This document shows, in pieces, positions 16,319 to 51,087 of a stretch of 59,312 nucleotides of DNA. The stretch is from a virus (lineage: Duplodnaviria > Caudoviricetes). Below the pieces are notes generated by a model, which was not told the DNA's origin, made no database searches, and saw only the letters and a list, made by a program, of their open reading frames with translations. The translations under genes were made by a program, and so were the position numbers. Positions within the stretch are counted from its first letter, which is position 1; each line of letters starts with the position of its first letter. The stretch lies in the IMG/VR virus record IMGVR_UViG_3300032898_000005, positions 1-59,312 of that record; one strand, written 5' to 3'.

Positions 16319-16411
16319 TTATTGAACGTCTGCCGCGCGCTTGGCCGCGCGGAACATGTAGCGGGTGATCGTCCAGCCGGTGAGCCGGGCTCCGGTCTCG
16401 TCTGTGTTCAT
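16319..16411 (-). CDS. Leaderless 30-aa ORF (MNTDETGARLTGWTITRYMFRAAKRAADVQ)
   Basis: ATG lies 7 nt downstream of a TGG-TTTAAT -10 box with TTGTCC -35. Confidence 0.45.
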   Translation of the reverse strand: MNTDETGARLTGWTITRYMFRAAKRAADVQ

Positions 16412-16417
16412 ACCACT

Positions 16418-16447
16418 ATTAAACCACACAGAGTGACATCCGGACAA
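16418..16447 (-). promoter_or_regulatory. SigA-type promoter overlapping palindromic operator
   Basis: TTGTCC-N18-TTTAAT; operator TTGTC-CGGAT-GTCAC at 16447-16433. Confidence 0.65.
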
Positions 16448-16692: not shown

Positions 16693-16722
16693 ATTAAAAC
16701 ACGCTTATTGTCTCCCGGTCAA
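16693..16722 (-). promoter_or_regulatory. SigA-type promoter / operator
   Basis: TTGACC-N18-TTTAAT; TTGTC-TCCCG-GTCAA at 16708-16722 overlaps the stop codon of the giant ORF. Confidence 0.65.
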
Positions 16723-22700: not shown

Positions 22701-23939
22701 GTAGCCCATGCAGATCTGCGTCATGATCACCTCGTCCGACTGGTCCGCGATCTCGATGGGCTTCATCGGGAACACCTTGGAGCCAGGCGGAAGGGCGATG
22801 CTCTTGTGCTTCCAGGCGGGGTCGCCAGCCAGGGCGTTGTTCTGGTCCTGCCAGATCTGCAGCTGGTTCGGCGTCCAGCCTAGGTTCTCGCCGGGGCTGA
22901 TGTAGTTGCCCGGGATCGTGCCCTCGTCGAAGAAGTCCATCTGAAACTGCTGCTTGCGCAGTCCGGTGATGGTCGGGATCAAGGTGCGTTCGAGGGGCGG
23001 GAAGCCGTACGGGGTCCACGCGCGCTGCGTGTAGGGAAGGTACAGCAGCTGGTCGCCCCGGTACTCCTTGGCGGGCTTGCCCAGCTCCTTGATGACGTCC
23101 TGGTCGGTGCCGTCGAGGATCTGCATCAGGTCGACCCTAGGGACGCCGTAAAGGTACTGCTGGTAGCCGGGCGACGGCGGGGCCACCCGGCCGCCGCGCG
23201 TGTTAACCAGAGGGCGGATCGTGCTGCCGCTGATGACCTCCAGCGCGGCCACGTCGCTGCCGAAGGGTCCTGCGCCCTTCTTCTTCGTGGGGTGCACGTA
23301 CAGCGAGGTCGCGTCGGTTACCAGCATCTCCTCGACGATGGCGTCGATGTAGCTGCCGAAGCTGATGTAGTCGGGGTCGGGCCGCTTGAAGAACCGCACC
23401 ACCTCGGCACGCCGCTCGGCAAAGTCGCGGTGCGCCGCCACGTCGCCGCGCATCTTCTTCTCGGCTTCCTTGGTGGGCATGATGTCCCACTCAAGGCCGC
23501 GAATCTCGTTCTTTCGGAGCTGGATGCACGCGCGGGCGACCGAGTAGATGTCGGCGTACATCCGCAGCGTGCCGAACGACGCGAGCTTGAAGCCCTCCGA
23601 GCCGGGCACGCCTACCGGCATGTTCCAGCCGACCGGCATCTCGCGCTGCCTCGGGCCGGGCCGCTCGTCGTCGCCGTCCGGAACGTTGATCGGCACCGTC
23701 TCGATCGGCGTCAGCGGCGTGAACGTACCGGCCAGGAACTGCATCGGGTCGCGAGGGAGTGGGGCGGCCAGGTTGTGACCGTACAGCATCTGCTGGTAGG
23801 TCGACACGGCCGGGCTCATCACCGACACCCCGCCGACCTGCTTGCGAACCTCGTTCCGCATCTTGGCGCGCTTCATCGCCGCTACCACGCGGGTGGGATC
23901 AGTTGCCACCGTCACCTCGTCCGCTCGTCGCCGCGTCAA
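16719..23939 (-). CDS. Giant portal - MuF (gp7-like) - multi-effector fusion protein (2406 aa)
   Basis: Portal-like N-terminal ~545 aa (YSVARACI, PYGFPPLE); Pro-rich linker; MuF signature KKW...DDRVCPHC...PPGHPECRC; NUDIX box GGRLEDGESVEDAARREWAEETG; ParB-like DGHHRALA; two CHDGCG..GHD fingers; C-terminal R...SSWT...EYE ADP-ribosyltransferase pattern. Confidence 0.85.
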   Translation of the reverse strand: MTRRRADEVTVATDPTRVVAAMKRAKMRNEVRKQVGGVSVMSPAVSTYQQMLYGHNLAAPLPRDPMQFLAGTFTPLTPIETVPINVPDGDDERPGPRQREMPVGWNMPVGVPGSEGFKLASFGTLRMYADIYSVARACIQLRKNEIRGLEWDIMPTKEAEKKMRGDVAAHRDFAERRAEVVRFFKRPDPDYISFGSYIDAIVEEMLVTDATSLYVHPTKKKGAGPFGSDVAALEVISGSTIRPLVNTRGGRVAPPSPGYQQYLYGVPRVDLMQILDGTDQDVIKELGKPAKEYRGDQLLYLPYTQRAWTPYGFPPLERTLIPTITGLRKQQFQMDFFDEGTIPGNYISPGENLGWTPNQLQIWQDQNNALAGDPAWKHKSIALPPGSKVFPMKPIEIADQSDEVIMTQICMGYDVEPMELGISPKVSATQSPGASNQMAKASQDKQQRKSTKPTLSFLTDIFNVLIQVIWKQEDMRFMFEGLEEDEDEDSLVDRLVKMLSNGLAPIDECRIALGKPPYGLPITSDPVFVSPTAGMVPLGSIDPTTGKPMGTPPPAAIGAPPPPGGGAPGGPPQVPGAAGRPALPSGSATPPKPGTTPPGAAGAPKPGGPPGTAPGGPPAGPADAFGKPLKPGDPGTDPQHPAPPPKLHPDDKVGQARQSAQEAHAQVQQQMHEDFAAGKPLAPPVRPPSASDELPGSEQNQPARPSTKAMLSELDALRRKVKKGTRVEDWQSRHLPEPVVEHYGELLKSLDADDAYRVTRQFVIGCFGPPTIAGRIEKVLSTTVPLDSQDGQQGLAPYDLMGGQGGLTTSVGRQRQHRGEQPIQQSYRSGPHDFTDDGDGNCRYCPRGEAAHDGHQHDNGATVDQNQKSRAAVLPKAGRPTTAYPRDWAGWRYDLQLKDLYADRLSAGLAALHSNMAEDWLQSRTATANKGALSNLAQQAWSWLTSRGFDQAIQDVVQQVLGNLWAEGFAVGREAAREQLSSAYDSTFWDEWTPGDAAAARLVAGNGLQQLLDDYGIQTIKSVTQTRMTDLANALAEGFEDGDSADTIAADIKQILSNPQRALMVAGTELARATTQASVAEYRKADQDAKKWSSAKDDRVCPHCKLNVDQGVIPIDQVYDTGDTFPPGHPECRCAILPKRLPVESTTVAPMSVAKSLVLEEYLASGLTYRDFERHELGKVGPHGYEHGWVFVGVPGAGSGGGAKLTKPEDWAPHLAELQELDKLPLDNEHNPVDPVLKRMLEIQGFNAKPGHDPIDPDRPVHYHAFGDWLGHSGSEGGGASDYADQFVNGDFRTSTGGRTAGFYTANHETGPSGAAIYTPHVMPMQFKPGSKVESADDLEDAAMQLPEPYKSLVRYDAGRMAALTGVDGVSEGKARTVVINRGALNVGPIRDTRQPKMAGWPKTVVPRYEPMRNVFKSDAAEFEAGGLAVRAKDTGRVLMIQRAHDEDDPAGGKWEFPGGRLEDGESVEDAARREWAEETGLPVPKGNAVATWDTGPYRGHVVVVRSESDVPILDRAKGANPDDPGNDNPEAVAWWDPAELKDNPAVRDELRDHPKRVRRALEATGDPIEKSAASIGEQVYQQLLRNYPPDSIEWVKDATWSGPHLVPWAEVDHDDMDKWAASHQRGKVDEFKRKIRAGEHVNPAVLVVDPDGDYIDVDGHHRALAYHELDELIPAWIGDIEPADRHDMEETHLDQVHEGSDPKNKHAIPRLIKDSFHGHHIAGTAYTYHHGYVLIDPAANDCHDGCGGKTKGGNYLPGHDAKHVSHLHQAVQDGHITAESALGMLHGKPKLQGKLETKLNNSGHPVSPFYHSTADYDAHANHTFDPNPAPAKPKIEPGHCHDGCGAKTKGGNYLPGHDSKHVSQLVASVKNGDITHAQAHEELSHSAKLQDKLASKLGTAKPKPTAPAAATHPAPGETSDEHLADLAAALENSDEPGGGKPEGSTAGVAYTDVGVTPDGRNWAYVVTTDGKDSMFAIEPHPEGKPGLRNAGLRAVYKGDGKVTIEAKQPDGTFAPAGPMADTTIASLNSSNVKVYNLIGEHMQGAQKQEKVEFDAAAIVAELSTKPGAVPSKPKVPKPTAASTNAPKVPKPEPGAPASHEMGAWDSKDESHTAIRDALFNEDLPGHPYSANDAVAHKQLVASRLAARIQVEPKKMVAAAFAGDGNEDTEHYNLMMDAAEHPDKYTFKKSNIGYELTISKKNALNPLSDYDKQLTAADIKQWAAAKLVQNWAGTSNDTSTKSLVAQEAAIDEFGLDRGHVAPWTLDSGKQDEIDEAYAQHGEAYRAFLRAQYELTQEDFKERGITRVNVIRGMKWDAGMLPDWAKGIKSGDKIEVPPLRPLSSWTVNTGTAKSFANGGSTSVILKSSMPVTSILSWPRSGFGCLNEYELVGLDATGVVTVGPTSNT

Positions 23940-25936: not shown

Positions 25937-26078
25937 ATTAAACCATGGCCCGTGACTCCTTGACAAGTCCATTCGACATATCCGTGCGAACCAAGATCGT
26001 AGCACACGCTTTGCTTCTCTCGCGTACGCACGAGCCCGCGAACGGGGGTTGTCACGGTGTCAATTAGTGTGGTTTACT
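25937..26078. promoter_or_regulatory. Divergent promoter pair, each on a TTGWC-N5-GWCAA-type operator
   Basis: Leftward TTGTCA-N18-TTTAAT (25966-25937); rightward TTGTCA-N18-TTTACT (26049-26078). Confidence 0.7.
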
Positions 26079-29943: not shown

Positions 29944-29973
29944 ACCTTACCACGGGGGTTGTCACGCTGACAA
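29944..29973 (-). promoter_or_regulatory. Promoter / operator with perfectly inverted arms
   Basis: TTGTC-ACGCT-GACAA at 29959-29973; TTGTCA-N18-TAAGGT leftward. Confidence 0.6.
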
Positions 29974-33760: not shown

Positions 33761-33790
33761 AGTGAACCACGTTCCTTGTCACGGTGTCAA
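33761..33790 (-). promoter_or_regulatory. Promoter / operator
   Basis: TTGACA-N18-TTCACT; TTGTC-ACGGT-GTCAA at 33776-33790. Confidence 0.65.
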
Positions 33791-33794
33791 TTGG

Positions 33795-34430
33795 TTACGA
33801 GCCGCTCGACCCGAACCCGGCCTGGCCCCGCTCGCCCTCGGGCAGGTCCAGGCCCTTGGGCAGCGTGACCACCTCGACCTGCTCCATCAGGTTGGGCAGC
33901 ACGATCAGCTGGCCCATCCGCGTGCCTGCGGGCAGGTGCAGCCGCTCGGCGTAGTCCTCGCTGGTGACCGGACGGAACAGCATCACGAACAGCTCGCCGC
34001 GCCACGTCTCGTCGATGATGCCGGGCATCACGATCACTTGGTGCTTGGCCCACGTCGACGACCGTCCCGTGATCCAGCCGAAGGTGTTGGGGGGCAGCGC
34101 GACCGCCACCCCCGTGGCAGCGTTCACGGTGTCGCCCAGGTCCATCACCACGTCCTCGGTCAGGGCCAGGTCGAGCCCGCAGTCGTGGGGGTAACTGGGC
34201 GGGCTGAACGCGGGGAACGGCTGGTCGTCCAGCCGCTTGGCCAGCAGCTTGTCCGTCCGCGACGTCCGCACCGCGTTGGCCAGGTTCTCCTGCATCGACC
34301 TGAGGCCGATCCGCCTGGGCAGCGGCGGGGCCTCCAGCGGCCCGTCTGGCACCGAGCTGCCCGGCTGGAAGGCCGCAACCAGATCGGCCAGCCGCTTCTG
34401 CTGCTCTGGGGTCGGGTTCTCCAGGCTCAT
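33795..34430 (-). CDS. dut: Trimeric dUTPase-family pyrophosphatase (divergent)
   Basis: Five motifs: CGLDL, GRSS, GIIDETWRG, RMGQ, RGQAGFGSSG. Confidence 0.85.
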   Translation of the reverse strand: MSLENPTPEQQKRLADLVAAFQPGSSVPDGPLEAPPLPRRIGLRSMQENLANAVRTSRTDKLLAKRLDDQPFPAFSPPSYPHDCGLDLALTEDVVMDLGDTVNAATGVAVALPPNTFGWITGRSSTWAKHQVIVMPGIIDETWRGELFVMLFRPVTSEDYAERLHLPAGTRMGQLIVLPNLMEQVEVVTLPKGLDLPEGERGQAGFGSSGS

Positions 34431-34946: not shown

Positions 34947-36149
34947 TCACATTCCCTTGCGTAGGTCGATCACGGAGTCGGGGCCGGTGCCGACCAGCTC
35001 GACCAGCGCGCCGATGTCGCGCGAGATCTTGGTGATCAGCGAGTAGTACCGGGCCGCGTCGGCGTCCTCGGTAAGGTTGCCGATGTCGGTCATGCCGCGC
35101 AGGGCCGGGATCACGTGGTCGGCCATGGTGAGGGCCGCCCGGACCGGGCCGGGTCCGCCGTTCGGGTGCATCCCGTTGGCCACCATCGCCGCGCGGGCCT
35201 GCGGCCCGTTCCAGAGGCCGACCCGGCGGATCTTGCGGGTCACGGTGGTAAGCTCGGGCTCCAGTCCCAGCTCCTCCCACGTCACCTCGTTGGTGAGGGG
35301 ACCGGAGTCGCCCGCCACCCGGATCGGGTAAGTGCGGAACACCACCCACACCTCCAGCTGCTCGGGCTCGACCACCCACGGCGACAGACCGGCCATGGAC
35401 AGGAAGTCGATCGCGGTGCAGTCTGAGGTGGTGCACTTCGGATAGTGTCCCGCGTGAGTGCCCAGCAGGTGCCCCTGGGTTCCCTCGATCAGCACGTCGC
35501 CGCCGTCGCGGGTCCACTGGGCCGCGATGTCCGCCACCGAGTGAGTGACGTGCACGTAGTTCTCCGCGCCGATGTCGAGGGAGTACCCGCTGGAGAGCTG
35601 GCCGATGATCCTGGCACCTCGCATGGCGCGGTCCGCGCGGGCCGCCCCGACGCCCTTGCCGGTCGAGCCGATCCGTCCCACGAGCTGCTCGGCCGCCTCC
35701 GCCTGGGCGTGGTGGGGCTCCAGTACGGTGGCCTGGTGGTCGACGATCAGCCGCTGGCTGACGTGGTACCCGGCGGCGTCTAGAAGGCGCAGCTCGCGGC
35801 TGAGGATGGCCAGGTCGACCTCGGACCCGGCCGCGATCGCGAGCGTCTCCGTCTGGTTCGAGACCGCCGCGACGGGCACCTGCTGCAGCCGCCACGGGTG
35901 AGCGTCAGAAGCGTGATGGCCAGGACTGAGCGGACTGCCCGCGTGGAACGCCATAAGAGCGGCGTCGCCCAGATTGGCGGCCGAGTCCTCGCAGTCGGGC
36001 GGGCACCGGCCGATGACGGTGTGCCCGGCGTTGGGTCCGGCCACCCGGATCGACAGGCCCCGGCGGTGCTCGCGGGCGAGGAACGCGGCGATCGCGCCCT
36101 TGCCCTCCGACCCGGCCTGCCCGCCGACTACCACTTGCAGTTGCGACAC
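34947..36149 (-). CDS. purZ: PurZ/PurZ0: N6-succino-2-amino-dAMP synthase (adenylosuccinate synthetase paralogue)
   Basis: GGQAGSEGKG (Ser in place of the PurA catalytic Asp), GPNAGHT, IGSTGKGVG, EGTQG, RTYPIRVAG, TTVTRKIRRVG, TMAD. Confidence 0.85.
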   Translation of the reverse strand: MSQLQVVVGGQAGSEGKGAIAAFLAREHRRGLSIRVAGPNAGHTVIGRCPPDCEDSAANLGDAALMAFHAGSPLSPGHHASDAHPWRLQQVPVAAVSNQTETLAIAAGSEVDLAILSRELRLLDAAGYHVSQRLIVDHQATVLEPHHAQAEAAEQLVGRIGSTGKGVGAARADRAMRGARIIGQLSSGYSLDIGAENYVHVTHSVADIAAQWTRDGGDVLIEGTQGHLLGTHAGHYPKCTTSDCTAIDFLSMAGLSPWVVEPEQLEVWVVFRTYPIRVAGDSGPLTNEVTWEELGLEPELTTVTRKIRRVGLWNGPQARAAMVANGMHPNGGPGPVRAALTMADHVIPALRGMTDIGNLTEDADAARYYSLITKISRDIGALVELVGTGPDSVIDLRKGM

Positions 36150-36359: not shown

Positions 36360-36388
36360 AGAATACCGCGTGCTTGTCACCGTGTCAA
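36360..36388 (-). promoter_or_regulatory. Promoter / operator of the purZ operon
   Basis: TTGACA-N17-TATTCT; TTGTC-ACCGT-GTCAA at 36374-36388. Confidence 0.75.
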
Positions 36389-37109: not shown

Positions 37110-37322
37110 TCACAGCGGCACCGTCGGGTCGGAGTCGGTCAGCATGACGATGCTGATCGTGAACGAGTCGGCGGCCCGGCCCAGGTAGATCGTGTGCAGG
37201 TCGGTGCGGTCGAGGTGCTGGTTCAGGTGCTTATCGCCAGCGACTGACGCGCGCTCGGCTGTGGAGTATGCGCCGCCCGCCAGCTGACACTTGCACGACC
37301 ACATGTGGGTTGGCTCCATCAC
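37110..37322 (-). CDS. Small C/H zinc-binding protein
   Basis: WSCKC...HLNQH; coupled to the polymerase stop. Confidence 0.45.
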   Translation of the reverse strand: MMEPTHMWSCKCQLAGGAYSTAERASVAGDKHLNQHLDRTDLHTIYLGRAADSFTISIVMLTDSDPTVPL

Positions 37323-39301
37323 ACTGCCTCAAGGTAAGAGGTGTGGCCGAAGGGCTTAGTGTCGGCCTTAAAAGGGACTCCCGAGAACAGTCGACTGAAA
37401 GTCGACACGATGGTGTCCTGCATCAGGGCGGAGACCCTTTCCACGTCGGTGACGGGAATGCGGTCAACCAGGGAGTCGTGAATCTGGAGGACCAGCATGC
37501 CGGGGCACTCGCGGTCGTGCTTGACCATGGCTATGCGCATCGCCTCGGAGACGTCGCCCTGGACTCGCTGGTTAAAGGCCTTGTGGACCGGCTCGTAGTC
37601 CGCGAACTTCCGGACCTTGCCGGTGCAGAGGCGGACGAAACCGTTCTCGGTGGCCATGTCGGAGTACTGGTACAGGGCGCGGGCGAAACCGGGGAACGCG
37701 TTCTTGTAATCGGAGATGAACTCGCGGGTCTGGTCCACGGTGTACTCGTAGCCGGTGAACTTGGCGATCTGGGCCTTGAGTTCCTTGGCCCCGATGCCGT
37801 AGAGGATGCCGAGGTTGCAGCGCTTGGCCACGCCTCGGTAGCGCTCCCAGTCGGGGTCGAGCAGGGCGTCGGCCAGGGCGGTCGACGGGTAGAACATGAG
37901 CTTGCAGGCCGCGTTGTGGGAGTCGACGCCCTTCTTGAGGGCGCGCAGCATGTTCTTCTCCTTGGCCACCCAGGTAGCCACGCGAATCTCGGCCTGGCTG
38001 GCGTCCGACTCCCAGTACTCGTAGCCGGGGTCGTAGCCGAGGAACCTGCGGATCGGTTCGAGGCCGGAGGGGATCTGGTAGTCGTGAGGGAGGGCCTGGG
38101 CCTGCCAGCGCTCGACCGAGAGACGGCCGGAGACGACGCGGCCCTGCCGGTGGCAAGTGCGCAGGCGCCCGTCCGGGCCGACGAGGGCGGGGAAGGCCGC
38201 GTACCACTTGCTGTTGGCCGACTGCAGCTCCTGGAAATGGGCGTACTCGGCAGCGCCGGGGGCGTTGAGCTTGATCAGGCGCTGGACCGACTCGTCGTCG
38301 ACCTGGGGCCTGCCACCGGCGGTCATCTTGTCGGCGTAGGGGAGGTAGCCCAGGCCGCCGTCCTTGGGTGCGCCGAAGAAGTACTTGACGGCGGCGGGTC
38401 CGGTGGGCTTGCCGGTGCCGCCCTTGAACGGTACGGCGGAGGCGGCCTCCTTGATCAGGCCGGTGAGCTTTACGGACTCGCGACGGCATCCGTCGGAATC
38501 GAACCCGACGCCGCGCTTCTCCATGCCGTAGAGGGTGCGCATCAGGGCCTGCTCCTCCTCGATCCGGATCGAGAGCTGGTCGGTGAGGAGGGTCTGCTGG
38601 TGCTCGTAGAGCAGGTAGGTGAGCTGGGCGTCACGCTGGGCGTAGGTGCCGAGGACGGACCAGGGGATGAGGTCGTACCGGGGGTCGGCCTGGGGACCCT
38701 TCCACGGGGCGAGGGCCTCGGCCTCGTCGGCCTCCGCTCCCTCCTCGATGCCAAGCTCCTTGCCGATGTTGAGGCGGACCGAGGTGGGCTTGAGCGAGGT
38801 GGACTCGCCCGGCCACAGCTGGCCGGAGGCGAGCATGGTGTCCCACACCACGCGGGAACCTAGGTCGTAGTGGCCGCCGTCCCACGGGGGGCAGGCGGGG
38901 CCGTCCGAGGTGCAGTACTGGTCGTGGGGGCGGTCGCGCTGGCCTGCCAGGAACATCAGCAGGTCGTACTTGGCGTTCTGCAGGATGAGATGCTGGCGGG
39001 ACAGCCAGCGCATGAGCTGGTCCCACGCGGCCAGGGACCGGTTGGGAGTGTAGAGGTCGGCGTCCGACCACTTGGAGATCCGGCGCAGGTGCGAGGACGG
39101 GATCTGCTTGGGGCCGAGGGGAAGGCACCCGTCGTAGTATCCCTGGTCGAAAGGGACGGCGATCGAGACAAGCTCGGCGGTGACGGGATCGCGCCAGGCG
39201 GCGGAGACGGCGGAGACGCGGGCACCGTCGTCAGCGAAGAGACCAGAGTCCTCGGAGTCCAGGGCGACAAGGTGGTCGGAGACGTCGGGGAGTCGGGTCA
39301 T
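37319..39301 (-). CDS. Family A DNA polymerase with 3'-5' exonuclease
   Basis: Exo DSE, QNAKYD, YAQRD; motif A DASQAEIR; motif B KRCNLGILYG; motif C IHDS. Confidence 0.92.
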   Translation of the reverse strand: MTRLPDVSDHLVALDSEDSGLFADDGARVSAVSAAWRDPVTAELVSIAVPFDQGYYDGCLPLGPKQIPSSHLRRISKWSDADLYTPNRSLAAWDQLMRWLSRQHLILQNAKYDLLMFLAGQRDRPHDQYCTSDGPACPPWDGGHYDLGSRVVWDTMLASGQLWPGESTSLKPTSVRLNIGKELGIEEGAEADEAEALAPWKGPQADPRYDLIPWSVLGTYAQRDAQLTYLLYEHQQTLLTDQLSIRIEEEQALMRTLYGMEKRGVGFDSDGCRRESVKLTGLIKEAASAVPFKGGTGKPTGPAAVKYFFGAPKDGGLGYLPYADKMTAGGRPQVDDESVQRLIKLNAPGAAEYAHFQELQSANSKWYAAFPALVGPDGRLRTCHRQGRVVSGRLSVERWQAQALPHDYQIPSGLEPIRRFLGYDPGYEYWESDASQAEIRVATWVAKEKNMLRALKKGVDSHNAACKLMFYPSTALADALLDPDWERYRGVAKRCNLGILYGIGAKELKAQIAKFTGYEYTVDQTREFISDYKNAFPGFARALYQYSDMATENGFVRLCTGKVRKFADYEPVHKAFNQRVQGDVSEAMRIAMVKHDRECPGMLVLQIHDSLVDRIPVTDVERVSALMQDTIVSTFSRLFSGVPFKADTKPFGHTSYLEAV

Positions 39302-39523
39302 CGTCCTGTCGCAATGTGGTAGACGGTGCTGGCGACGAAGCACAGCACCAGGGCGGCCAGCGCGATGCGGAGCATGGCGTCGGTTGACGGAATGAATCGG
39401 CCGGGGCCTCGGACGCTCACGGGGCGACTCCGAGGTAGGTGAGGGAGATAGCGAGGGCGCAGGCCGCAGAGAGCAGGCCGAGGATAAGTAGGAAGTCGCG
39501 GACGGCGACGAGGTAGCGGTACG

Positions 39524-40683: not shown

Positions 40684-40728
40684 ATGGTATCAGATGGGTT
40701 GTCACCCGGTCAACGGACATGATAAAAT
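40684..40728. promoter_or_regulatory. Bidirectional promoter with interdigitated -35 boxes
   Basis: TTGTC-ACCCG-GTCAA at 40699-40713; rightward TTGTCA-N18-TAAAAT; leftward TTGACC-N18-TACCAT. Confidence 0.75.
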
Positions 40729-42575: not shown

Positions 42576-42605
42576 AGTAGACCAGATGGGTTGTCACGGA
42601 GACAA
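42576..42605 (-). promoter_or_regulatory. Promoter / operator
   Basis: TTGTC-ACGGA-GACAA at 42591-42605; TTGTCT-N18-TCTACT. Confidence 0.55.
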
Positions 42606-42762
42606 GGGCATGGTCGGATGGGAACAGAGGGCCGGTTCGCGGCCCTTACGGTGATCGACGGCTACCTGCAGCAGTAGTGCAGGCGCGCGGCCCCGGCCCC
42701 GACAAGGGTGTCCGGGGCCTGGTTGTACTCGGAGTGACCAGGCCATCACAGTGTGATTCACG

Positions 42763-42866: not shown

Positions 42867-45098
42867 CTACATCCGGCGCAATGACCAGACCTGACCCCGG
42901 CTGGACCTGCTCTTTTCCATTACGACGCCCGACTTGCGCAGGATGCCGGACAGGCGGCCCAGGCGCATCCCGATCTGGGTAGGACTCTTGGGCCAGCCGG
43001 TGTCAGCGCCCCGGTCGAGTCGGCCGTGATAGGTGGAGAACAGGGCCGACGTGGTGCCCTCCCAGCCCTGCTCCGCGAGGGCCAGTACATGGACGGTGAA
43101 GGCGTCCGTCTCCACTGACGCGCGGACGCCCTCGGCTACCTTGCGGCGGTACGTGTCGACCGTGCGCGAGCCGGTGGCGCGGTCCATCGCGGCGCAGACG
43201 TGCACGAAGTCGGCCATCCGCTCGCGAGAGAAGTCGCCCGACTCGGCCACGGCCGGGAGGTGAGCCAGGACCGACGAGGCGAGGTCGAGCAGCGCGCCGA
43301 GGGCGACCGGACGGTCGCGCTCCCATTGCCTGGCCAGGTCGGTCTGAGTGATGAACGTGGAGATCGGCTCGGGCTCGAACAAGACGGTCCGGTCCACCAG
43401 GTCCCCACGGGAGACCAGGGAGTCGATCGAGGTCACCACGAACGAGCGGCGGACCGACACCACGGACAGGTCCTGGTCGGAGTACTTGCGGCGTTTGACG
43501 TCGCCGGTTTTGGTGACGGCGGTGCAGATCGCGTCGGACAGCCAGTCAGGCATCGTGGACAGGTTGTCGAGAACGACGATGGGCTGACCAGCGATGGTGA
43601 CCTCCCAGTCCTCGTCGCGACCGGGCTGGCGGCGGACGGCGACGGGGGAGGGGTCGACCAGGGAGCGGATGAGGCGGGCCATCGAGGACTTGGCGGTGCC
43701 CTCCTCGCCGCGCAGGTAGACCACGGGGTGATCGATGTCGGGGATCAGCCAGGCGAGGATGCAGGCGACCAGCAGGGCGCGGTCGGCCGGGGGTAGGTTC
43801 AGGAGCGGGTAGAGGGTGTCTTTGAGCTTGCCGCCCCGGACGGGCGTGGGCAGCTCGCCGGTAAGGTCGGTCCGGCGGAACAGCACAGGGGGCTCCTCGA
43901 CTACCTTCCAGGTGCCGGGACCGATCACGATGGCGCGGCCGGTCTGGTCCCCGAGGTCGAGCACGATCTCGCCGTCGTGCCACGCGGTCCGCATCGGGAG
44001 GGGGGTCGTGGGCTTGTAGGCGGCCCGGCCTTCGAGGACGGTCATCACGTCGGCCAGGGCCCCGTTCGATGGCGGATGTCCGAACTCCTGTTCATGCTGG
44101 GCGGCCAGGGCCGCGCGCATCGAGCCCGAGCCGCCGCGCAGGGCGCGCACCACGCGGGGGCCGGTGAGAGGAACGCCGAAAGGCACGTTCTCCTCGGACC
44201 GGACTAGCTCGTAGTCGCGCATGGCGATCCTCATCAGTCGCTGGGCCATGGTCGGCTTGTCGCCGTCCGCGCCCTCCAGCAGCTCGGTCCGAGCCTGCTC
44301 CAGGCACCGGGCCAGCTCCATCGGCCACCAGTTCGGCTGCTGCCGCTTGCGCTCGGCCCGGCGCGACGTGGTGATGGCGTCGGCCTCGGCCAGCTCGCGG
44401 ATCTGGTCGTCGTCGAGTCCGGCCCGCATCGCGTGCTTGATCAGCAGGAACGTGTGGTCGCTGGGGTCGGTGCCCTTGGGTACCACCACGCGCAGCCCGG
44501 CGGGGACGCGGCTGCTGGATGGTATCTCGGCGGTCACGGAAGGGGTCACCTCGGGCCTCATCAGCCAGTCCGGTGCATCGGCCAGGGGACGCCACGACGA
44601 TACCTCATAGATGCCCTCCTGGCTGCGGGAGGGCGGCAGGATCACGTAATCGTGACTCAGGCCGCCCCGGATGTCTATCGTCTTGTCCTTGTACTTGCGA
44701 GCGGGCGCGCCAAGCTTACCTGACTGCCGTTCGCCACGGTAGAACATGTGGGTACCGCGAACGCCCTCATGTCCGGGCGTGCTTACCACGCGGGTGGCGG
44801 GCAGGTGCCCTAGGCTCAGCCGGTCCTCGGCGTGGCCGGTCTTGTAGGAGTCGAAGTCGAGGATGACCAGGTGGTCGGCCCGGCCGCCGATCAGGGCGTC
44901 CGGCCAGGTCTCCCACCAGATGTGTATCTGCTCCACGTCGACGGTAGCCGAATGCTTGCCACCGGCGGTTAGCGGGGCCTTGTCGGCACCGCAGGGAAGA
45001 ACTGGGATTCCGAATTGCTGGGACCAGACGAGCGCCCACATCAGCATCGGCTGGACGGACTCGACACGGGCAGCCACTTCGGCTGGTAGCTTGCACAA
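42867..45098 (-). CDS. Bifunctional primase-polymerase (Prim-Pol) fused to helicase/ATPase
   Basis: PVLPC...KAPL...AT.D...WWETWPDA, LDFD, GTHMFY, YVILPPS; P-loop GEEGTAKS, LDN. Confidence 0.85.
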   Translation of the reverse strand: MCKLPAEVAARVESVQPMLMWALVWSQQFGIPVLPCGADKAPLTAGGKHSATVDVEQIHIWWETWPDALIGGRADHLVILDFDSYKTGHAEDRLSLGHLPATRVVSTPGHEGVRGTHMFYRGERQSGKLGAPARKYKDKTIDIRGGLSHDYVILPPSRSQEGIYEVSSWRPLADAPDWLMRPEVTPSVTAEIPSSSRVPAGLRVVVPKGTDPSDHTFLLIKHAMRAGLDDDQIRELAEADAITTSRRAERKRQQPNWWPMELARCLEQARTELLEGADGDKPTMAQRLMRIAMRDYELVRSEENVPFGVPLTGPRVVRALRGGSGSMRAALAAQHEQEFGHPPSNGALADVMTVLEGRAAYKPTTPLPMRTAWHDGEIVLDLGDQTGRAIVIGPGTWKVVEEPPVLFRRTDLTGELPTPVRGGKLKDTLYPLLNLPPADRALLVACILAWLIPDIDHPVVYLRGEEGTAKSSMARLIRSLVDPSPVAVRRQPGRDEDWEVTIAGQPIVVLDNLSTMPDWLSDAICTAVTKTGDVKRRKYSDQDLSVVSVRRSFVVTSIDSLVSRGDLVDRTVLFEPEPISTFITQTDLARQWERDRPVALGALLDLASSVLAHLPAVAESGDFSRERMADFVHVCAAMDRATGSRTVDTYRRKVAEGVRASVETDAFTVHVLALAEQGWEGTTSALFSTYHGRLDRGADTGWPKSPTQIGMRLGRLSGILRKSGVVMEKSRSSRGQVWSLRRM

Positions 45099-45336
45099 TC
45101 GGACGCGCTCCTAGTACAATAGTCAACTGGAAGAGGTCTCGCTCATCTCGCCCTAGCGGACCCCCGATCGCCAGACTGTCGCGGCCTGGCGGCCGGGGGT
45201 TCTCGCTATCTCAGCACCCAGGTTCGGGCACAGTAAAGGCCGGGTACCCAGGGGAAGTGGATACCCGGCCTTCACGTCCGACCGCCCGGTAGACCCCTCG
45301 GCGGGGTGCTCGAACGGCGGCCGGGGTCAGGGGCGA

Positions 45337-45804
45337 CTAAAAGTCGTCGTCGTCCGCGTCGTCGTCGGAGTCGTCGTCCTCGCCGTCCGAGTTGGACCCG
45401 ACCGGCAGCAGGGTCTGCAGGTCCGACGCCATCTGGCCCTTGCGAGCGCCCTTCTGGATCTCGCGCTGGCCGACGATTCCCTTGACCTCCTTGCCGAGGA
45501 GGATGTCGGTGTCGACGTTGGGCTTGACCTCGAACGCCTCGAAGAACATCTTGAGGAACCACGCCTGGTTCTCCGCGAAACCGGTGTTGGCGCGGATCGT
45601 CTTGCCCTTGAACTTGTCGCCGGTCAGCTGGCCGGACACCACGGAAAAGGTCCAGATCCAGTAGCCGTTGCCGTTGACGTCCGGCTTGGGCGAGACGACC
45701 ACCTTGTCGAGCTTGAGGACGTACTCGTCCTCGTCGAGCAGGGCGGAGCCGCTGCCCTCGGCCTTGGCCACGGCCTTTGCGGTTGCTGCGTCGAGCTTGG
45801 GCAC
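45337..45804 (-). CDS. ssDNA-binding protein-like (DUF669-type) with acidic tail
   Basis: Located in the exonuclease-ATPase-SSB module; ends DDDSDDDADDDDF. Confidence 0.65.
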   Translation of the reverse strand: MPKLDAATAKAVAKAEGSGSALLDEDEYVLKLDKVVVSPKPDVNGNGYWIWTFSVVSGQLTGDKFKGKTIRANTGFAENQAWFLKMFFEAFEVKPNVDTDILLGKEVKGIVGQREIQKGARKGQMASDLQTLLPVGSNSDGEDDDSDDDADDDDF

Positions 45805-45844
45805 TTGGTGCCTCCCAGTTAGTGCGGATCGTGTGTCGGGCGCT

Positions 45845-45874
45845 ATCGTACTGCGGTGGTTGTCAGCGTGTCAA
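45845..45874 (-). promoter_or_regulatory. Promoter / operator
   Basis: TTGACA-N18-TACGAT; TTGTC-AGCGT-GTCAA. Confidence 0.75.
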
Positions 45875-46164
45875 CGGGACTTGGTCGAGTAATTGGTGGC
45901 CCGGCCGCGTGCGTGCTTGCCGACGCGGACGCCGGGCAGCAGGTCGAGCAGCTGCTTGCCGCTGCCGCGCCACTCGCTGACCTTGCCCACGGCCGGTGGT
46001 GCCGCCGGAGGGCGGGTAGGCTGGCACGTCTCGCACCGCTCGCGCTTGGGACGCCGGACCCCGGGCACCTTCTCGGGCTTGGGCTCGTGGTCGGCTGCGG
46101 TGTGGCCGCCCGCCATGTACCGGCGGTTAGCCTTCTGCCGGGCGCGTTTGCGTGCTGTCGTCAT
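45871..46164 (-). CDS. Basic hypothetical protein
   Basis: AGGAG RBS; CETC. Confidence 0.45.
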   Translation of the reverse strand: MTTARKRARQKANRRYMAGGHTAADHEPKPEKVPGVRRPKRERCETCQPTRPPAAPPAVGKVSEWRGSGKQLLDLLPGVRVGKHARGRATNYSTKSR

Positions 46165-46598
46165 CTTCGAACTCTCCTAGATCTCTGGTTGCGTAGTCGG
46201 CAGTCCTGATCACGTCCAGCATCGCGAGCTGGTAGCGAATCACGGCCTGGGCTAGGGGGGCCACCGCCGCCAGGGCGTCGACGGCCTCACTTACGGGAAC
46301 GTGGGGAGCGCCGCGCTGCCGCATCGCGATCGTCTCCCGGTCCATGCCGGTGGCCAGCTTCCTGGCCCGGCTGGCGATCTGGGTGCGCTCCTCCGCGCTC
46401 ACCGATCGATCCTTATCGATCGTTTGTGCAGACTAGCGTGCATTCTGGTTGCATGCTCAGAGCATGTGCGTTGCGGTCTGGAGTCGATACGTCCAGGGGA
46501 TTGAACGATGTACATCGTGGTTAGCTGGGGACACTCGCCGTGATTCCAGTCGCACTGTCCCAGATCGCCTACGCACACCGTGTCCGTGACGGGCACGA

Positions 46599-47441
46599 TC
46601 ATTCAGCGTCTCCCTTCTTGCGGACCTTGAGAAGCTCGCGGTACTCGGTCTGGATCGGGTCGGTGTCCTTGGTAAGGTCGCCCGAGACGTAGGCGAGGAG
46701 ACGGTCGAACGTGGGGACGGCCAGGCGGGCGGGTAGGACGCCGAAGTTGTCCTTACCGGTAAACTGGGCCGAGGGGCGGGGGTAGCCGACGACCACGGGC
46801 CGCCCGTCCGGCCAGGAGCCCTCCTGCTGCAGGCGGATGACCATGTTCGAATAGCCGATGAGGTCGCCTCGGAGGGCGGGGTTTACGGCCGGAGTGCGCT
46901 TGACCGCGCCGGAGCCCTCGTCCACTTCGAGGGTCATCTGGCAGGCCACGGCGACGTGGCAGGGCAGCTCGACCAGGGAGCGCATCAGGCGGCGCATCTC
47001 CTGGGTGACGCCCTTGTACTGGTCCCGGCCGTCGCCGGTGGTGTACCGCTCCAGGGGGTTCAGCTCGACGTGGTTGCGCTCGGACTGGGTGACCGCGCGC
47101 TGCCAGTCGAAGTCGACGTACTTCTCGATCCGGCGGGCCACCCACTCGGTGGCGGTGTCGATTGCGATGCCCGCGAGGGCGGCCGGGTCGTCGTCCAGCA
47201 TCTCGCGCCACTCCTCGATAGTCTTCTCCATCGAGATCGGGTCGAGCTGGTCGATCGGGTCGATGCGGTCGGTGGGGATGCCGAGGGCCTTCAGCGGCTT
47301 GTTTCGGATGCCCTTGTCGGCCCGGATCCACTTTACCAGTCCGAGCTTTGCCATGTAGGCCATGGAAGTAGTCTTGCCGGTGCCGTAGTCACCGAAGTAG
47401 AGGACCCGCAGGCGGTCGTCCTCGTCGTCTAGAGATGCCAT
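46599..47441 (-). CDS. AAA ATPase (Sak4/AAA_24-like recombination ATPase)
   Basis: FGDYGTGKT, IAIDT; adjacent to the exonuclease and SSB-like genes. Confidence 0.75.
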   Translation of the reverse strand: MASLDDEDDRLRVLYFGDYGTGKTTSMAYMAKLGLVKWIRADKGIRNKPLKALGIPTDRIDPIDQLDPISMEKTIEEWREMLDDDPAALAGIAIDTATEWVARRIEKYVDFDWQRAVTQSERNHVELNPLERYTTGDGRDQYKGVTQEMRRLMRSLVELPCHVAVACQMTLEVDEGSGAVKRTPAVNPALRGDLIGYSNMVIRLQQEGSWPDGRPVVVGYPRPSAQFTGKDNFGVLPARLAVPTFDRLLAYVSGDLTKDTDPIQTEYRELLKVRKKGDAE

Positions 47442-47447
47442 GGGCCG

Positions 47448-47492
47448 AGTGTACCAGAGGACTTGTCACCGTGTCACGTCGTATGGTTTAAT
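47448..47492. promoter_or_regulatory. Bidirectional promoter for two leaderless mRNAs
   Basis: TTGTC-ACCGT-GTCAC at 47463-47477; leftward GTGACA-N18-TACACT then ATG at 47441; rightward TTGTCA-N18-TTTAAT then ATG at 47499. Confidence 0.75.
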
Positions 47493-47498
47493 GGGTTT

Positions 47499-47576
47499 AT
47501 GACGAACTACGGATACGAGGACGAGGCCGAGCACATCGACCTGAGCGGCGACTACAGCGAGGAGCCGCCGTTCTAG
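47499..47576 (+). CDS. 25-aa acidic microprotein ending in an SSB-like C-terminal tip (MTNYGYEDEAEHIDLSGDYSEEPPF)
   Basis: ATG 7 nt after the -10 box; GC3-rich codons; followed by a terminator. Confidence 0.6.
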   Translation: MTNYGYEDEAEHIDLSGDYSEEPPF

Positions 47577-47589
47577 GACCGAGCACAGC

Positions 47590-47786
47590 TGAGGCCCGCA
47601 CCTGATGGAGGGTGCGGGCCTCGCTGTTTCTAAGGCGGGTACCGAGGGGACCAGATCCCCATCCTGCCCTCGGTACCCGCCACGACGCTGACGGAAGGGT
47701 CGCCCAGCTACGGGGGTAGAACTGGGTTCCGCTTGGCGAACGGTGGCTCGTCCGGCACCGTCCGCTTGAGACCGCCAGCGGATATG
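47590..47786 (-). ncRNA. Candidate ~200-nt structured small RNA
   Basis: Own promoter TTGACA-N18-TAGGTT (47821-47792); 15-bp perfect stem 47634-47681; terminal hairpin; no credible long ORF. Confidence 0.4.
47591..47622. terminator. Bidirectional hairpin terminator
   Basis: 12-bp stem GAGGCCCGCACC / GGTGCGGGCCTC. Confidence 0.7.
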
Positions 47787-47874
47787 GGACCAACCTACCG
47801 GACCGGTTGTCGGCGTGTCAAGCGGGCGGTTACCACGCGGGTGGCGTCAGTGCCGCTGATCGTAGCACGCGGCA

Positions 47875-48789
47875 CTAGTGACGGGAGAAATCCTGAGTAA
47901 AGCCTTGGTCGCGCAGGAAGCCCTGCACGTTAAGGCCCTTGCGCCCGGCCAGGCAGGCGTCCCGGAAATCGCACCGCCACGCGCATCGGTCCGGGTCCGT
48001 GGACCTGGGCGACATGGCTCCGGCACGGCTTACGGCGGCCTGCTGGGTGTACCTGGCCAGGGCCAGCTGATAGGTCTCCCGGGCCACGATGTCTAGCTCG
48101 CGATCGGATCGTACCATAGGCAGGCGTCGGAACCGCTCGTCGAGCGGGGTCGCGCCCGGGGTGGCGACGTCGGCCTGCAGGCGGTAGGTGCGGGCCGCGT
48201 TGTAGATCTGGCCGAACACCCGCTTGCCGAGCTGCCGCATCGCCCAGGTGTACAGGCCGAACTGGTCGTCCAGGGCGAGGAGCTTCTCCCCGGGCAGGTC
48301 CTTGCCGGACTTGTGGTCGACTACGTAGATCTTCTTGTTCCGCCGGTTGCGGACCACCAGGTCGATCTTGACCTTAAGCCAGAACGAGGACGGCGTTCCC
48401 TTGAGCGTGGGCAGTCGGCACTCGGCCGCGTGCTCGACGGCCAGGATCTGCCACTCGGGGTCGGTGCCCCAGTGGGCGACGTAGCCCGAGTACATCCACT
48501 CGGTCAGCCCGGCCAGGTCGTCCGGCATCCGGCGCATCTCGGACTCGACCGCCTTGCGGCACAACCCGAGCAGCGCACCGCTGAACGAATTGGGCGAGTC
48601 CTGCTCCTTCTGCAGGCGCATGAGGGTGTTGTAGTGGGCCTCCATGACCTGATGCCAGGCGGTGCCCTTGGCCAGGGCGGTCTCGGGGCCGTGGGGCTTG
48701 GACCAGCGATCGACGTAGCCGAGCTGGTGCTTGAGGGCGCATTGCTTGGCCGTGTCGATCTCGCTGTAGCTGACGATCCGCCTAGGCAT
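47875..48789 (-). CDS. PD-(D/E)XK exonuclease (RecB/Cas4-like)
   Basis: SYSEI...C, GTAWH, KIDLVV...VVDHKS, QFGLY, C-terminal CAWRCDFRDAC. Confidence 0.85.
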   Translation of the reverse strand: MPRRIVSYSEIDTAKQCALKHQLGYVDRWSKPHGPETALAKGTAWHQVMEAHYNTLMRLQKEQDSPNSFSGALLGLCRKAVESEMRRMPDDLAGLTEWMYSGYVAHWGTDPEWQILAVEHAAECRLPTLKGTPSSFWLKVKIDLVVRNRRNKKIYVVDHKSGKDLPGEKLLALDDQFGLYTWAMRQLGKRVFGQIYNAARTYRLQADVATPGATPLDERFRRLPMVRSDRELDIVARETYQLALARYTQQAAVSRAGAMSPRSTDPDRCAWRCDFRDACLAGRKGLNVQGFLRDQGFTQDFSRH

Positions 48790-49123
48790 CTCCGGTAACC
48801 TCCCTATGCTGTCGGTAAGCGAGCGCGGCGACGTGCACGCACTGGCTGATTAGCGCGCGGAACTCCAGGTCGCTGATCCCGTCCGGGTGGCTGCGGGCGA
48901 TCTGGCCGAACGAGCCCATCAGGTCCATCAGGATCGCGGCGAACTGCTCGCCGGTTACCCGGTAAGAGTCCAGCGCCGTGACGATGTTGATCGCCATGAT
49001 GTCGAACGCGTCGTGGTGGGCGGGGTTGTCGCATTGCAGCTTGACCCGATCGGTCGGGTCCTCCTCGACCAAGAACCGCTTCTGGTCGTCAGTCAGTATC
49101 GGCATGTATCTCCGGCTTTCCAC
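48782..49123 (-). CDS. Hypothetical protein
   Basis: Coupled ORF in the early operon. Confidence 0.5.
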   Translation of the reverse strand: MESRRYMPILTDDQKRFLVEEDPTDRVKLQCDNPAHHDAFDIMAINIVTALDSYRVTGEQFAAILMDLMGSFGQIARSHPDGISDLEFRALISQCVHVAALAYRQHREVTGDA

Positions 49124-49400
49124 GGGGCCTCCGGCTGACTGCGGACGCCAGGAGGACCAGACTGACCTTATAACCTTCCAGATTGCCCCGAAGACCGTCG
49201 TCGGGGCCTTTCAGGATGCCCTCGACCGACATGGCCACCTCCATCAGGAACTGGGCCAGGCGGATATCGGACATCGGGTACGAGTCGCGCAAGGACTCCA
49301 CCGACATCAGCATCGTGGACGGGTCGACCCCCGACCAGGCAGCAGAGCTGTCTGCCTGGTCGAGGGCCTCCCTGATCGTCCGCGTGAGCGGTCGTGTCAC
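49089..49400 (-). CDS. Hypothetical protein
   Basis: GTG overlaps the upstream stop. Confidence 0.5.
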   Translation of the reverse strand: MTRPLTRTIREALDQADSSAAWSGVDPSTMLMSVESLRDSYPMSDIRLAQFLMEVAMSVEGILKGPDDGLRGNLEGYKVSLVLLASAVSRRPRGKPEIHADTD

Positions 49401-49996
49401 TGCGAATCGTCGCTACTGAACGTAGGGTCGGACGGCCCGTCGCCGGGCTCGTCGACGTGACTGCCCTCGTTATCGTACGAGTTCTCGCCGTCCGTTCCGA
49501 TGAACGAGAAGGGGAACCCGACCGAGCGGAACACGTCGGCCAGCGAGTTAGGCACGGCCTTGTTGGCCTGGATCTCGGCCCCGGGCGGCGGGAACTTCTG
49601 CGGGAACTCAGCGAACGACAGCGGCGACCCGTCTTCGTAAGAGAACATCTTCTCGTGGTCGGCGTCAGTGTGGCCGCAGGGGTACTGAGCGTCGGACGGG
49701 AGGATCTGCCCGGCCGGGGGCGGCACGACCTCGTAGTGGCGGAGGGTCCAGCCGCTGATGAGGTCGAGCACCTCGTCCCAGGTGCGCGCACGGTGGCCGT
49801 AGCGGCCGGTGAGATACCACGAGCCGTTGTCGGCGCGGATCGCGGCGTAGGTGTAGGTCTGGTCCGCCAGGACGCGGAAGATGCGCAGCATCGCGCCCTC
49901 GGCTGGTTCGGGGCCGAACGCTTCTTCCAGTCGCTTGAACTCGGCCAGGCGCTCGGCTACCTGGTCCATGAGGGCGGCGGCCGCCGCCCTGGTCAT
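49397..49996 (-). CDS. Hypothetical protein (about 199 aa)
   Basis: TYTYAAIRA..GSWYLTG..TWDEVL motif; first gene after the leftward promoter at 50078. Confidence 0.6.
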   Translation of the reverse strand: MTRAAAAALMDQVAERLAEFKRLEEAFGPEPAEGAMLRIFRVLADQTYTYAAIRADNGSWYLTGRYGHRARTWDEVLDLISGWTLRHYEVVPPPAGQILPSDAQYPCGHTDADHEKMFSYEDGSPLSFAEFPQKFPPPGAEIQANKAVPNSLADVFRSVGFPFSFIGTDGENSYDNEGSHVDEPGDGPSDPTFSSDDSQ

Positions 49997-50048
49997 CTTC
50001 GACACATCTCGCTCCGATCGGGCCGCCCCGGCGGCGGCCTGTCCCGGC

Positions 50049-50124
50049 AGTGTATCGCATTGCTTGACTACGTGACAACGGCGGGGAACGGTCGTTGCCA
50101 CGGAGTCACCGCCTGGGGTATCCT
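50049..50124. promoter_or_regulatory. Divergent promoters with two operators (switch-like region)
   Basis: TTGAC-TACGT-GACAA at 50064-50078 (leftward, -10 TACACT); TTGCC-ACGGA-GTCAC at 50095-50109 (rightward, -10 TATCCT). Confidence 0.7.
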
Positions 50125-51057: not shown

Positions 51058-51087
51058 TTGACTGCGTGACAAGTATTCCGGTAGACT
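51058..51087 (+). promoter_or_regulatory. Promoter / operator
   Basis: TTGACT-N18-TAGACT; TTGAC-TGCGT-GACAA. Confidence 0.75.

Follow-up and report, generated by a model that had tools for sequence, protein, structure and literature searches.

Does the spacer between an exonuclease gene and a Sak4-like recombinase gene of an uncultured phage hold a gene of its own and, if so, what might a product of only 25 residues do? The question is raised by an open reading frame (ORF) at 47499..47576 of IMG/VR virus record IMGVR_UViG_3300032898_000005 (Duplodnaviria; Caudoviricetes), here called the micro-ORF, whose predicted product ends in EEPPF, close to the C-terminal docking tip of actinobacterial SSBs (the proteins that bind single-stranded DNA). 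The window that was analysed is the whole of this record, 59,312 bases, with a CheckV completeness of ~86 % and a G+C content of 65–70 %. An initial annotation had described the locus as a stand-alone, inverted mini transcription unit with its own promoter, a leaderless ATG and a terminator, producing a decoy of the host SSB tail. The micro-ORF is probably a real gene; that its product mimics an SSB tail and targets the host's clients of SSB is put forward tentatively, as a possible function that falls short of being established as the likely one. Tails of this kind are already known, both from SSBs themselves and from other replication proteins of phages. Full-text searches of the literature, judged from listings and the openings of abstracts, turned up no stand-alone gene for an SSB tail alone.

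Coding signal of the micro-ORF

The micro-ORF lies on the strand opposite to both flanking genes, which encode the Sak4-like ATPase and the exonuclease (Table 1). Codon usage was scored with a table built from 24 long genes of the phage (11,192 codons), and the micro-ORF reached 0.93–0.95 bits per codon, a higher score than that of ~94–96 % of equal-length true-frame windows of the phage genes. It ranked third among the 912 start-to-stop ORFs of 20–45 amino acids (aa), the two that outranked it being the in-frame tail of the SSB-like gene and an ORF located inside an 85-aa ORF. The score was matched by 15 of 15,197 open 24-codon intergenic windows, with the micro-ORF's own windows counted in, and by three of 46,017 wrong-frame windows within genes. 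G or C was present at the third position of 23/24 codons, compared with 8/24 at the second position. In a sliding profile the coding signal climbed at the ATG and dropped at the stop of the micro-ORF, and this profile revealed no other coding-like frame in the exonuclease–Sak4 spacer (47442-47874, ~434 bp).

A longer, 37-aa reading from an upstream TTG (47463) was ruled out because that TTG is the -35 hexamer of the promoter, and searches of Pfam and PHROGs with the 37-aa frame gave no families. A search of the PDB with the peptide (E ≤ 10) gave no chains. The product was also ruled out as a bacterial or phage SSB (PF00436), as it comprises 25 residues and has no OB-fold domain. The DNA of 47300-48000 had no match in 50,697 phage records, no tRNA or tmRNA was found around the micro-ORF, and Rfam returned there only two sub-threshold Thr_leader matches (22 and 20.3 bits compared with a gathering score of 55), which were read as chance. 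The description of the locus as a stand-alone, inverted mini transcription unit was upheld in that every listed element was found in its place and the coding signals were strong.

The SSB-type tip

Eight of the 25 residues of the predicted peptide are acidic, none is lysine or arginine, three are tyrosine and one is phenylalanine. The phenylalanine is the free terminal residue, following proline, and two glutamates stand directly before the PPF (EEPPF, then TAG). Only one of the 1,901 stop-delimited frames of at least 5 aa in the window ended in PPF, and the same frame was the only one that ended in [DE][DE]PPF; in 200 Markov-random windows [DE][DE]PPF was not encountered and [DE]PPF had a mean of 0.02 per window, figures that apply to a motif tested post hoc, prompted by the initial annotation. 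Across the whole window, the frames that ended in Phe with at least three acidic residues among the last eight were the micro-ORF and the SSB-like protein only.

Published SSB tips include GADDEPPF, FGGGDDEPPF and ...GGGDDEPPF in Mycobacterium smegmatis (PMC3575820, PMC7847540) and DEPPF in SsbA of Streptomyces coelicolor (PMC3616714), and the tip of Escherichia coli SSB is given as ...DDDIPF in the same set (PMC3575820, PMC7847540, PMC3616714). Measured against these DEPPF tips, the claim that the C-terminus is close to an actinobacterial SSB tip stood, as EEPPF is one conservative change from DEPPF and both have an acidic run and Pro-Phe at a free C-terminus in a disordered context. The micro-peptide differs from a bacterial SSB C-terminus in having neither OB-fold nor Gly-rich linker, in its total length of 25 residues and in being phage-encoded with its own predicted promoter and terminator. 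The comparison was made with SSBs of Mycobacterium and Streptomyces, and the SSB tip of the phage's host may differ.

It is improbable that the peptide is real and the SSB-like tip coincidental, the peptide then owing its action to its tyrosines and overall acidity, perhaps by mimicking nucleic acid or by binding some other phage or host protein. The eight acidic, three tyrosine and zero basic residues would suit such a role, no family in Pfam or PHROGs matched, and the tip is one position off the canonical D-E-P-P-F, but 25 residues are short for a DNA mimic, and what chance seldom yields is exactly this PPF end behind two acidic residues.

A two-way promoter with leaderless geometry

The promoter elements and the leaderless ATG named in the initial annotation were found at the coordinates given. 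That annotation had missed that the -35 hexamer is half of a two-way promoter common to the Sak4-like gene. The leaderless start is predicted from geometry only. The rightward arm reads TTGTCA-ccg-TGTCAC-gtcgta-TGG-TTTAAT-gggttt-ATG, up to the micro-ORF start, and the leftward arm GTGACA-cgg-TGACAA-gtcctc-TGG-TACACT-cggccc-ATG, up to the Sak4 start. The 15-bp motif TTGTCAnnnTGTCAA (TTGACAnnnTGACAA on the opposite strand) had 19 matches in the window compared with 1.63 expected, and 18 sites shared the layout of a -35 hexamer, N3, xGwCAA, N6, TGG and a TwnnnT hexamer, the micro-gene promoter being one of these. The 9-mer TGGTTTAAT was present in three copies, compared with 0.00 expected from 100 shuffles, and all three were placed 6 nt past the 15-bp motif. 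Spaced pairs of hexamers were likewise over-represented, with five matches to TTGTCA-N16-19-TNNNAT (0.16 expected) and three to TTGACA-N16-19-TANNNT (0.14 expected).

Both ATGs lie 6 nt past their own -10 hexamers, and therefore both mRNAs would start at the start codon. At the micro-ORF the arrangement of TTTAAT, 6 nt and ATG, with no Shine–Dalgarno sequence, is the one expected of a leaderless gene of actinobacterial type, in which ATG or GTG would stand ~7 nt past the last base of the -10 hexamer, and this promoter geometry implies leaderless initiation of the micro-gene from a predicted start site. A matching TGG-TAGGCT-N6-ATG layout precedes the Sak4 gene of one relative (L004, see below). 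In mycobacteria, ATG or GTG at an mRNA's 5' end is both required and enough for leaderless translation, and small proteins are produced in this way by the hundred (PMC4633059). The micro-gene resembles the genes for these small leaderless proteins in its ATG at the predicted 5' end, in having no Shine–Dalgarno sequence and in its tiny product; it differs in being phage-encoded and in having a transcription start predicted from promoter geometry only.

Sites of the same promoter family include 16433-16447, 25952-25966, 26049-26063, 29959-29973, 33776-33790, 36374-36388, 40699-40713, 45860-45874, 47463-47477, 47807-47821, 50064-50078 and 51058-51072. These promoters are often two-way, as exemplified by the one at 40699/40713 between a helicase gene (plus strand) and a methyltransferase gene (minus strand). 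A second candidate leaderless micro-ORF (16319-16411, minus strand) lies behind a TGGTTTAAT-N6-ATG element and would encode 30 aa (MNTDETGARLTGWTITRYMFRAAKRAADVQ), with a codon score of just 0.24. G+C-rich hairpins lie almost directly after the family promoters at 25937-25966 (minus strand) and 42591-42650 (plus strand) and may give rise to short transcripts or act as stabilising 5' stem-loops.

Hairpins and minus-strand RNA

The terminator proposed after the micro-ORF was recovered as a 14-pair hairpin (47590-47623) that starts 13 bases past the micro-ORF stop and is followed by the U-rich tail CTGTTTCTAA, with a folding energy of -32.0 kcal/mol. A scan of 45000-50000 found no other terminator-like site. 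The second hairpin (47635-47681) probably stops or structures the transcript that would converge from the minus-strand promoter at the far end of the spacer. The spacer is strongly structured on both strands (z-scores -5.97 and -7.66). The lower score belongs to 47580-47821 on the minus strand, a stretch of ~200 nt of structured non-coding RNA past this promoter that ends in two strong hairpins, had no match to an Rfam family and may be either a small RNA or the 5' leader through which the Sak4 operon is regulated.

Comparison with related phages

Syntenic relatives in IMG/VR were collected with Sak4 and SSB-like queries (n=5: L004, from the same contig as L008, and L009–L012), with Sak4 proteins 46–59 % identical to the one in the window. 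Their exonuclease–Sak4 spacers measured ~200–680 bp and all contained the promoter motif. In L009, L011 and L012 the spacer holds same-strand ORFs instead, and Sak4 there has a Shine–Dalgarno sequence. L004 has no rightward -10 element and no ORF, but keeps a hairpin with stems homologous to those of the terminator-like hairpin, as well as the 11-mer GCGACTACAGC (blastn-short E 0.033), which here is located inside the micro-ORF. L004 has nothing that corresponds to ~20 nt around the EEPPF-stop, and the comparison fits either loss in L004 or a recent origin here. The only acidic Phe tails within the 7.8–10.5 kb covered in each of the five relatives were those of the SSB-like proteins.

Closer relatives are known as proteins only (P0002, Sak4, 87 % identical; P0020, SSB-like, 94 % identical) and fall outside the count of five. 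The exonuclease alone as query gave no IMG/VR relatives. The Sak4 alignment gave only L004 in IMG/VR, none in GTDB genomes and, in metagenomes, a single relative (34 %) that sits at the end of its contig and lacks upstream DNA, and the SSB-like alignment gave no prophage in GTDB genomes. In the 7.8 kb covered in each of two distant cultured phages, Streptomyces phage LazerLemon and Microbacterium phage Zanella, neither a PPF tail nor a micro-gene on the opposite strand was present.

A number of results weigh against an SSB-directed peptide gene. The micro-ORF and its -10 element were absent from the exonuclease–Sak4 spacer of all five syntenic relatives (0/5), no opposite-strand acidic ORF was present in those spacers, and no PPF-type tail was found within the 7.8–10.5 kb of each. 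Nothing was found by a search for the peptide in the whole 20,214-base L004 record, by tblastn of the peptide (E ≤ 10) against the 50,697 phage records, or by scans for the DYSEEPPF-stop pattern in IMG/VR and in GTDB genomes (0 in each), and the conservation of the EEPPF-stop that the initial annotation had named as a check was not seen. Since the hairpin and the 11-mer persist in L004 in the absence of an ORF, their roles need no peptide. A single terminator-like site in the region scanned is no more than chance would give (1.9 ± 1.3 expected). The hexamer TTTAAT is without the consensus A at position 2, and a generic sigma-70 scan, which picked up the leftward GTGACA-N18-TACACT on the minus strand, therefore passed over the micro-gene promoter; TTTAAT is nonetheless considered a real phage element because it recurs as a fixed 9-mer. 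The terminase of the phage is closest to cyanophage and alphaproteobacterial phage terminases. Finally, M. smegmatis RecO is reported not to bind the tip of its own SSB, for which E. coli RecO has an affinity of only 3.0 µM (PMC3575820), and therefore a decoy would need a high concentration and the list of actinobacterial clients is uncertain.

Several of these results would be expected if the ORF were untranslated and the spacer regulatory, with its two-way promoter and back-to-back hairpins, so that the short plus-strand transcript acted as RNA. In one variant this transcript could act as an antisense RNA against the minus-strand transcripts that run from 47821-47792 toward Sak4, or otherwise interfere with them. 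The promoter motif and the hairpin persist although the ORF is missing in 5/5 relatives, both strands are strongly structured, the converging minus-strand promoter is conserved in L004 and the number of terminator-like sites is within what chance gives. A purely regulatory spacer is nevertheless rather unlikely, as it leaves unexplained a three-base periodicity and a codon usage that just 0.1 % to 0.007 % of non-coding windows reach, the limitation of this signal exactly to the ATG-to-stop interval, the placing of the micro-ORF ATG at N6 from its -10 element, equal to that of the Sak4 ATG, and a tip expected fewer than 0.02 times per window.

That the ORF is instead what decay has left of the 3' end of an earlier SSB gene is very improbable. 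The coding signal begins at an ATG exactly 6 nt past a recurring -10 element, the promoter and the Sak4 start occupy the upstream position in which a remnant of an OB-fold or Gly-rich linker would be sought (none is present), and the orientation is opposite to that of the module. A remnant would account for the host-type tip and the coding-like codon usage, and the lack in L004 of ~20 nt around the EEPPF-stop, with the 11-mer and the hairpin kept, is also compatible with decay.

The SSB-like protein and the receptor of the peptide

No match to PF00436, the canonical SSB family, was found across the window. The phage encodes a different SSB-like protein (45337-45804), which was modelled as an OB-fold (pLDDT 80.4) and had as its best fold match the plasmid SSB-like protein PrgE (8s4s, E 7.2e-06, TM 0.53/0.61), followed by RPA and many bacterial SSBs. 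It ends in DDDDF and, as the initial annotation had said, thus differs from the micro-peptide. All 35 tails of the SSB-like family (P0019–P0053 listed) end in Phe, eight with ...DDDF, 23 with ...[ED]PDF and four with other endings, and none of the 35 ends in PPF. The family has no Pfam family of its own, and its ...[ED]PDF tail style is one residue off the actinobacterial SSB tip DEPPF.

Phage SSBs of the T7 gp2.5 style have acidic, Phe-terminated tails that serve as a docking element in the phage replisome. The micro-peptide resembles them in offering a short, acidic C-terminus that ends in Phe, and the DDDDF of the phage SSB-like protein is of the same style, but the T7 gp2.5-type tails sit on larger proteins and serve phage-internal contacts; we know of none that is a free-standing gene product.

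The host-decoy interpretation of the initial annotation had missed a possible target inside the phage, namely Sak4, although Sak4 proteins have been shown experimentally to be readers of a ...PPF SSB tail (PMC5928155). The Sak4 of phage HK620 requires the last six residues of its cognate SSB, NDYPPF, to bind SSB-covered single-stranded DNA (ssDNA) and for stimulation (PMC5928155). The two systems are alike in their neighbourhood of exonuclease, Sak4 and SSB-like protein and in the resemblance of NDYPPF to the peptide's GDYSEEPPF; in HK620 the tail is part of the SSB (PMC5928155), whereas here the PPF tail is on a separate micro-peptide that would be transcribed divergently from Sak4. The peptide could accordingly be a co-expressed free SSB tail for the phage's own Sak4, activating it in trans or competing with SSB-coated ssDNA to time or limit annealing. 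The sharing of one two-way promoter by both genes in mirror geometry is in keeping with such a receptor, as is the kind of tail that HK620 Sak4 reads.

A complex prediction from the Sak4 alignment (18 rows) and the peptide scored 0.46, compared with 0.14 for the best of three controls, which is a weak pass; at least 58 % of the contacts were common to the runs and the pLDDT of the partner was ~46. In the calibration of the method, which contained no chain of fewer than 30 residues, 58 of 80 solved complexes attained the mark, as did two of 110 mismatches, and those passing with scores ≤0.60 were seven of the 80 solved complexes and both mismatches. A weak pass is, in the wording of this calibration, more often wrong than right unless the guess is already likely. 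Sak4 would moreover be expected to read another tail, as its cognate SSB-like protein ends in DDDDF and the family has no PPF ending; all five relatives have Sak4 without the peptide, and it is not obvious what would be gained from a free tail that competes. Sak4 is thus regarded as an unlikely receptor. Host clients are ranked slightly above it on two grounds, the DDDDF ending of the tail cognate to Sak4 and the existence of relatives that have Sak4 but lack the peptide.

Host and genomic setting

A Sak4 relative was found in 147 phage records, every one of them named for an actinobacterial genus, and among cultured phages those closest in their replication genes are actinobacteriophages. For the PurZ-like protein described below, the best matches were in Streptomyces phages. 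Promoters of the TAnnnT type and leaderless starts fit Actinobacteria. Pfam searches with a set of genes that included the endolysin revealed no domain typical of a particular host. An actinobacterial host is tentatively suggested by these affinities, from which that of the terminase departs.

Nearly all genes of the window are carried by the minus strand, as is every member of the replication and recombination module around the micro-ORF (Table 1). A polymerase and a helicase are encoded in the window in addition to the primase-polymerase (prim-pol). The order exonuclease, recombinase, SSB-like protein and prim-pol is kept in LazerLemon and Zanella.

Table 1. Coordinates of the micro-ORF, of the signals around it and of the neighbouring genes of the module
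Feature	Position	Strand	Details
Micro-ORF, 25 codons and TAG	47499..47576	+	ATG 47499, TAG 47574-47576; product MTNYGYEDEAEHIDLSGDYSEEPPF
Two-way promoter core, 15 bp, TTGTCAccgTGTCA(C)	47463..47477	both	-35 TTGTCA (micro-gene, +); -35 GTGACA 47477-47472 (Sak4-like gene, -)
Micro-gene -35, TTGTCA	47463-47468	+	18-nt spacer ending TGG (47484-47486)
Micro-gene extended -10, TGG-TTTAAT	47484..47492	+	Hexamer TTTAAT 47487-47492; then GGGTTT, then ATG
Sak4-like gene -10, TACACT	47448..47453	-	TGG before it; ATG 47441 6 nt past hexamer
Intrinsic-terminator-like hairpin and tail CTGTTTCTAA	47590..47633	+	14 pairs (10 G-C), loop 6, -32.0 kcal/mol
Second hairpin	47635..47681		Perfect 15-bp stem, -36.1 kcal/mol
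Converging promoter, TTGACA-N18-TAGGTT	47792..47821	-	Just past exonuclease stop; conserved in L004
PD-(D/E)XK exonuclease	47875-48789	-	phrog_1218 at 1.3e-59; PF12705
Sak4-like AAA_24 / RecA-like ATPase	46599-47441	-	phrog_124 at 1.2e-24; PF13479 at 1.6e-07
OB-fold SSB-like protein	45337-45804	-	155 aa, C-terminus DDDDF; model and fold match
Prim-pol	42867-45098	-	Profile matches (Pfam/PHROGs)

Two further features of the window were observed. A PurZ-like '2-aminooxy adenylosuccinate synthetase' (34947-36149, minus strand; phrog_1211 at 7e-75) is 44–47 % identical to proteins of Streptomyces phages Galactica, Hiyaa and Keanu and adjoins genes for a dUTPase-fold protein (33795-34430, minus strand) and a DNA polymerase (37319-39343, minus strand). 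Judging from this gene and its neighbours, adenine may be replaced by 2-aminoadenine in the phage DNA. One ORF of 2,406 aa (16719-23939, minus strand) combines portal, MuF-like head-morphogenesis, NUDIX hydrolase and phrog_5395/5477 domains in a single fusion.

Proposed mode of action and meaning

The reading that is preferred here, that of an SSB-tail mimic directed at the host, can be set out as follows. The micro-ORF would be a lineage-specific, leaderless micro-gene served by the rightward arm of the two-way phage promoter from which the Sak4-like recombinase gene is read as well. Transcription would stop at the hairpin 47590-47623 and yield an mRNA of ~125 nt that opens with the ATG codon. 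The product would be a disordered and strongly acidic peptide of 25 residues with a free ...EEPPF-COOH that copies the actinobacterial SSB docking tip; it is read as a free SSB tail because it is too small to fold and the SSB-type tip is its sole distinctive feature. We infer the transcription start, the translation and the binding of the micro-peptide from the DNA. Its terminal Phe and carboxylate would insert into the SSB-tail pockets of SSB-docking proteins, and the peptide would compete with SSB-coated ssDNA for these proteins or activate them in trans. Free ...DDEPPF peptides of 10 and 19 residues do activate mycobacterial ClpX in trans in a manner dependent on the terminal Phe (PMC7847540).

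Host clients of SSB would be the likeliest targets. The tip is of the host type (PPF), which none of the 35 tails of the SSB-like family shares, and the phage is predicted to run on its own polymerase, helicase, prim-pol and OB-fold SSB-like protein ending in DDDDF. With replication enzymes of its own it could afford to jam the host SSB hub. That the peptide titrates host SSB partners is conceivable, purely by inference, as the outcome.

A wider proposal, that free-standing SSB-tail peptides form an overlooked class of phage take-over or counter-defence factors, is doubtful. Each member, a tiny acidic peptide of an otherwise unrelated phage, would end in the tip of its host phylum (EEPPF here) and jam the host SSB interactome, with the phage using an orthogonal SSB-like protein such as the one ending in DDDDF, and the functions jammed would be replication restart, repair nucleases and SSB-recruited defence.

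The SSB tail is a hub that guides many bacterial replication, repair and recombination enzymes to ssDNA, and its blocking is pursued as an antibacterial strategy. If the preferred reading is true, a natural, phage-encoded free SSB tail would be a very economical means of taking over or disarming the host, as well as a ready-made peptide probe for the poorly mapped actinobacterial SSB interactome. The micro-gene would then also be a clear case of functional genes lying below the usual ORF cut-off. Even if the role of the peptide fails, a clean two-way, leaderless promoter grammar is documented in an uncultured phage.

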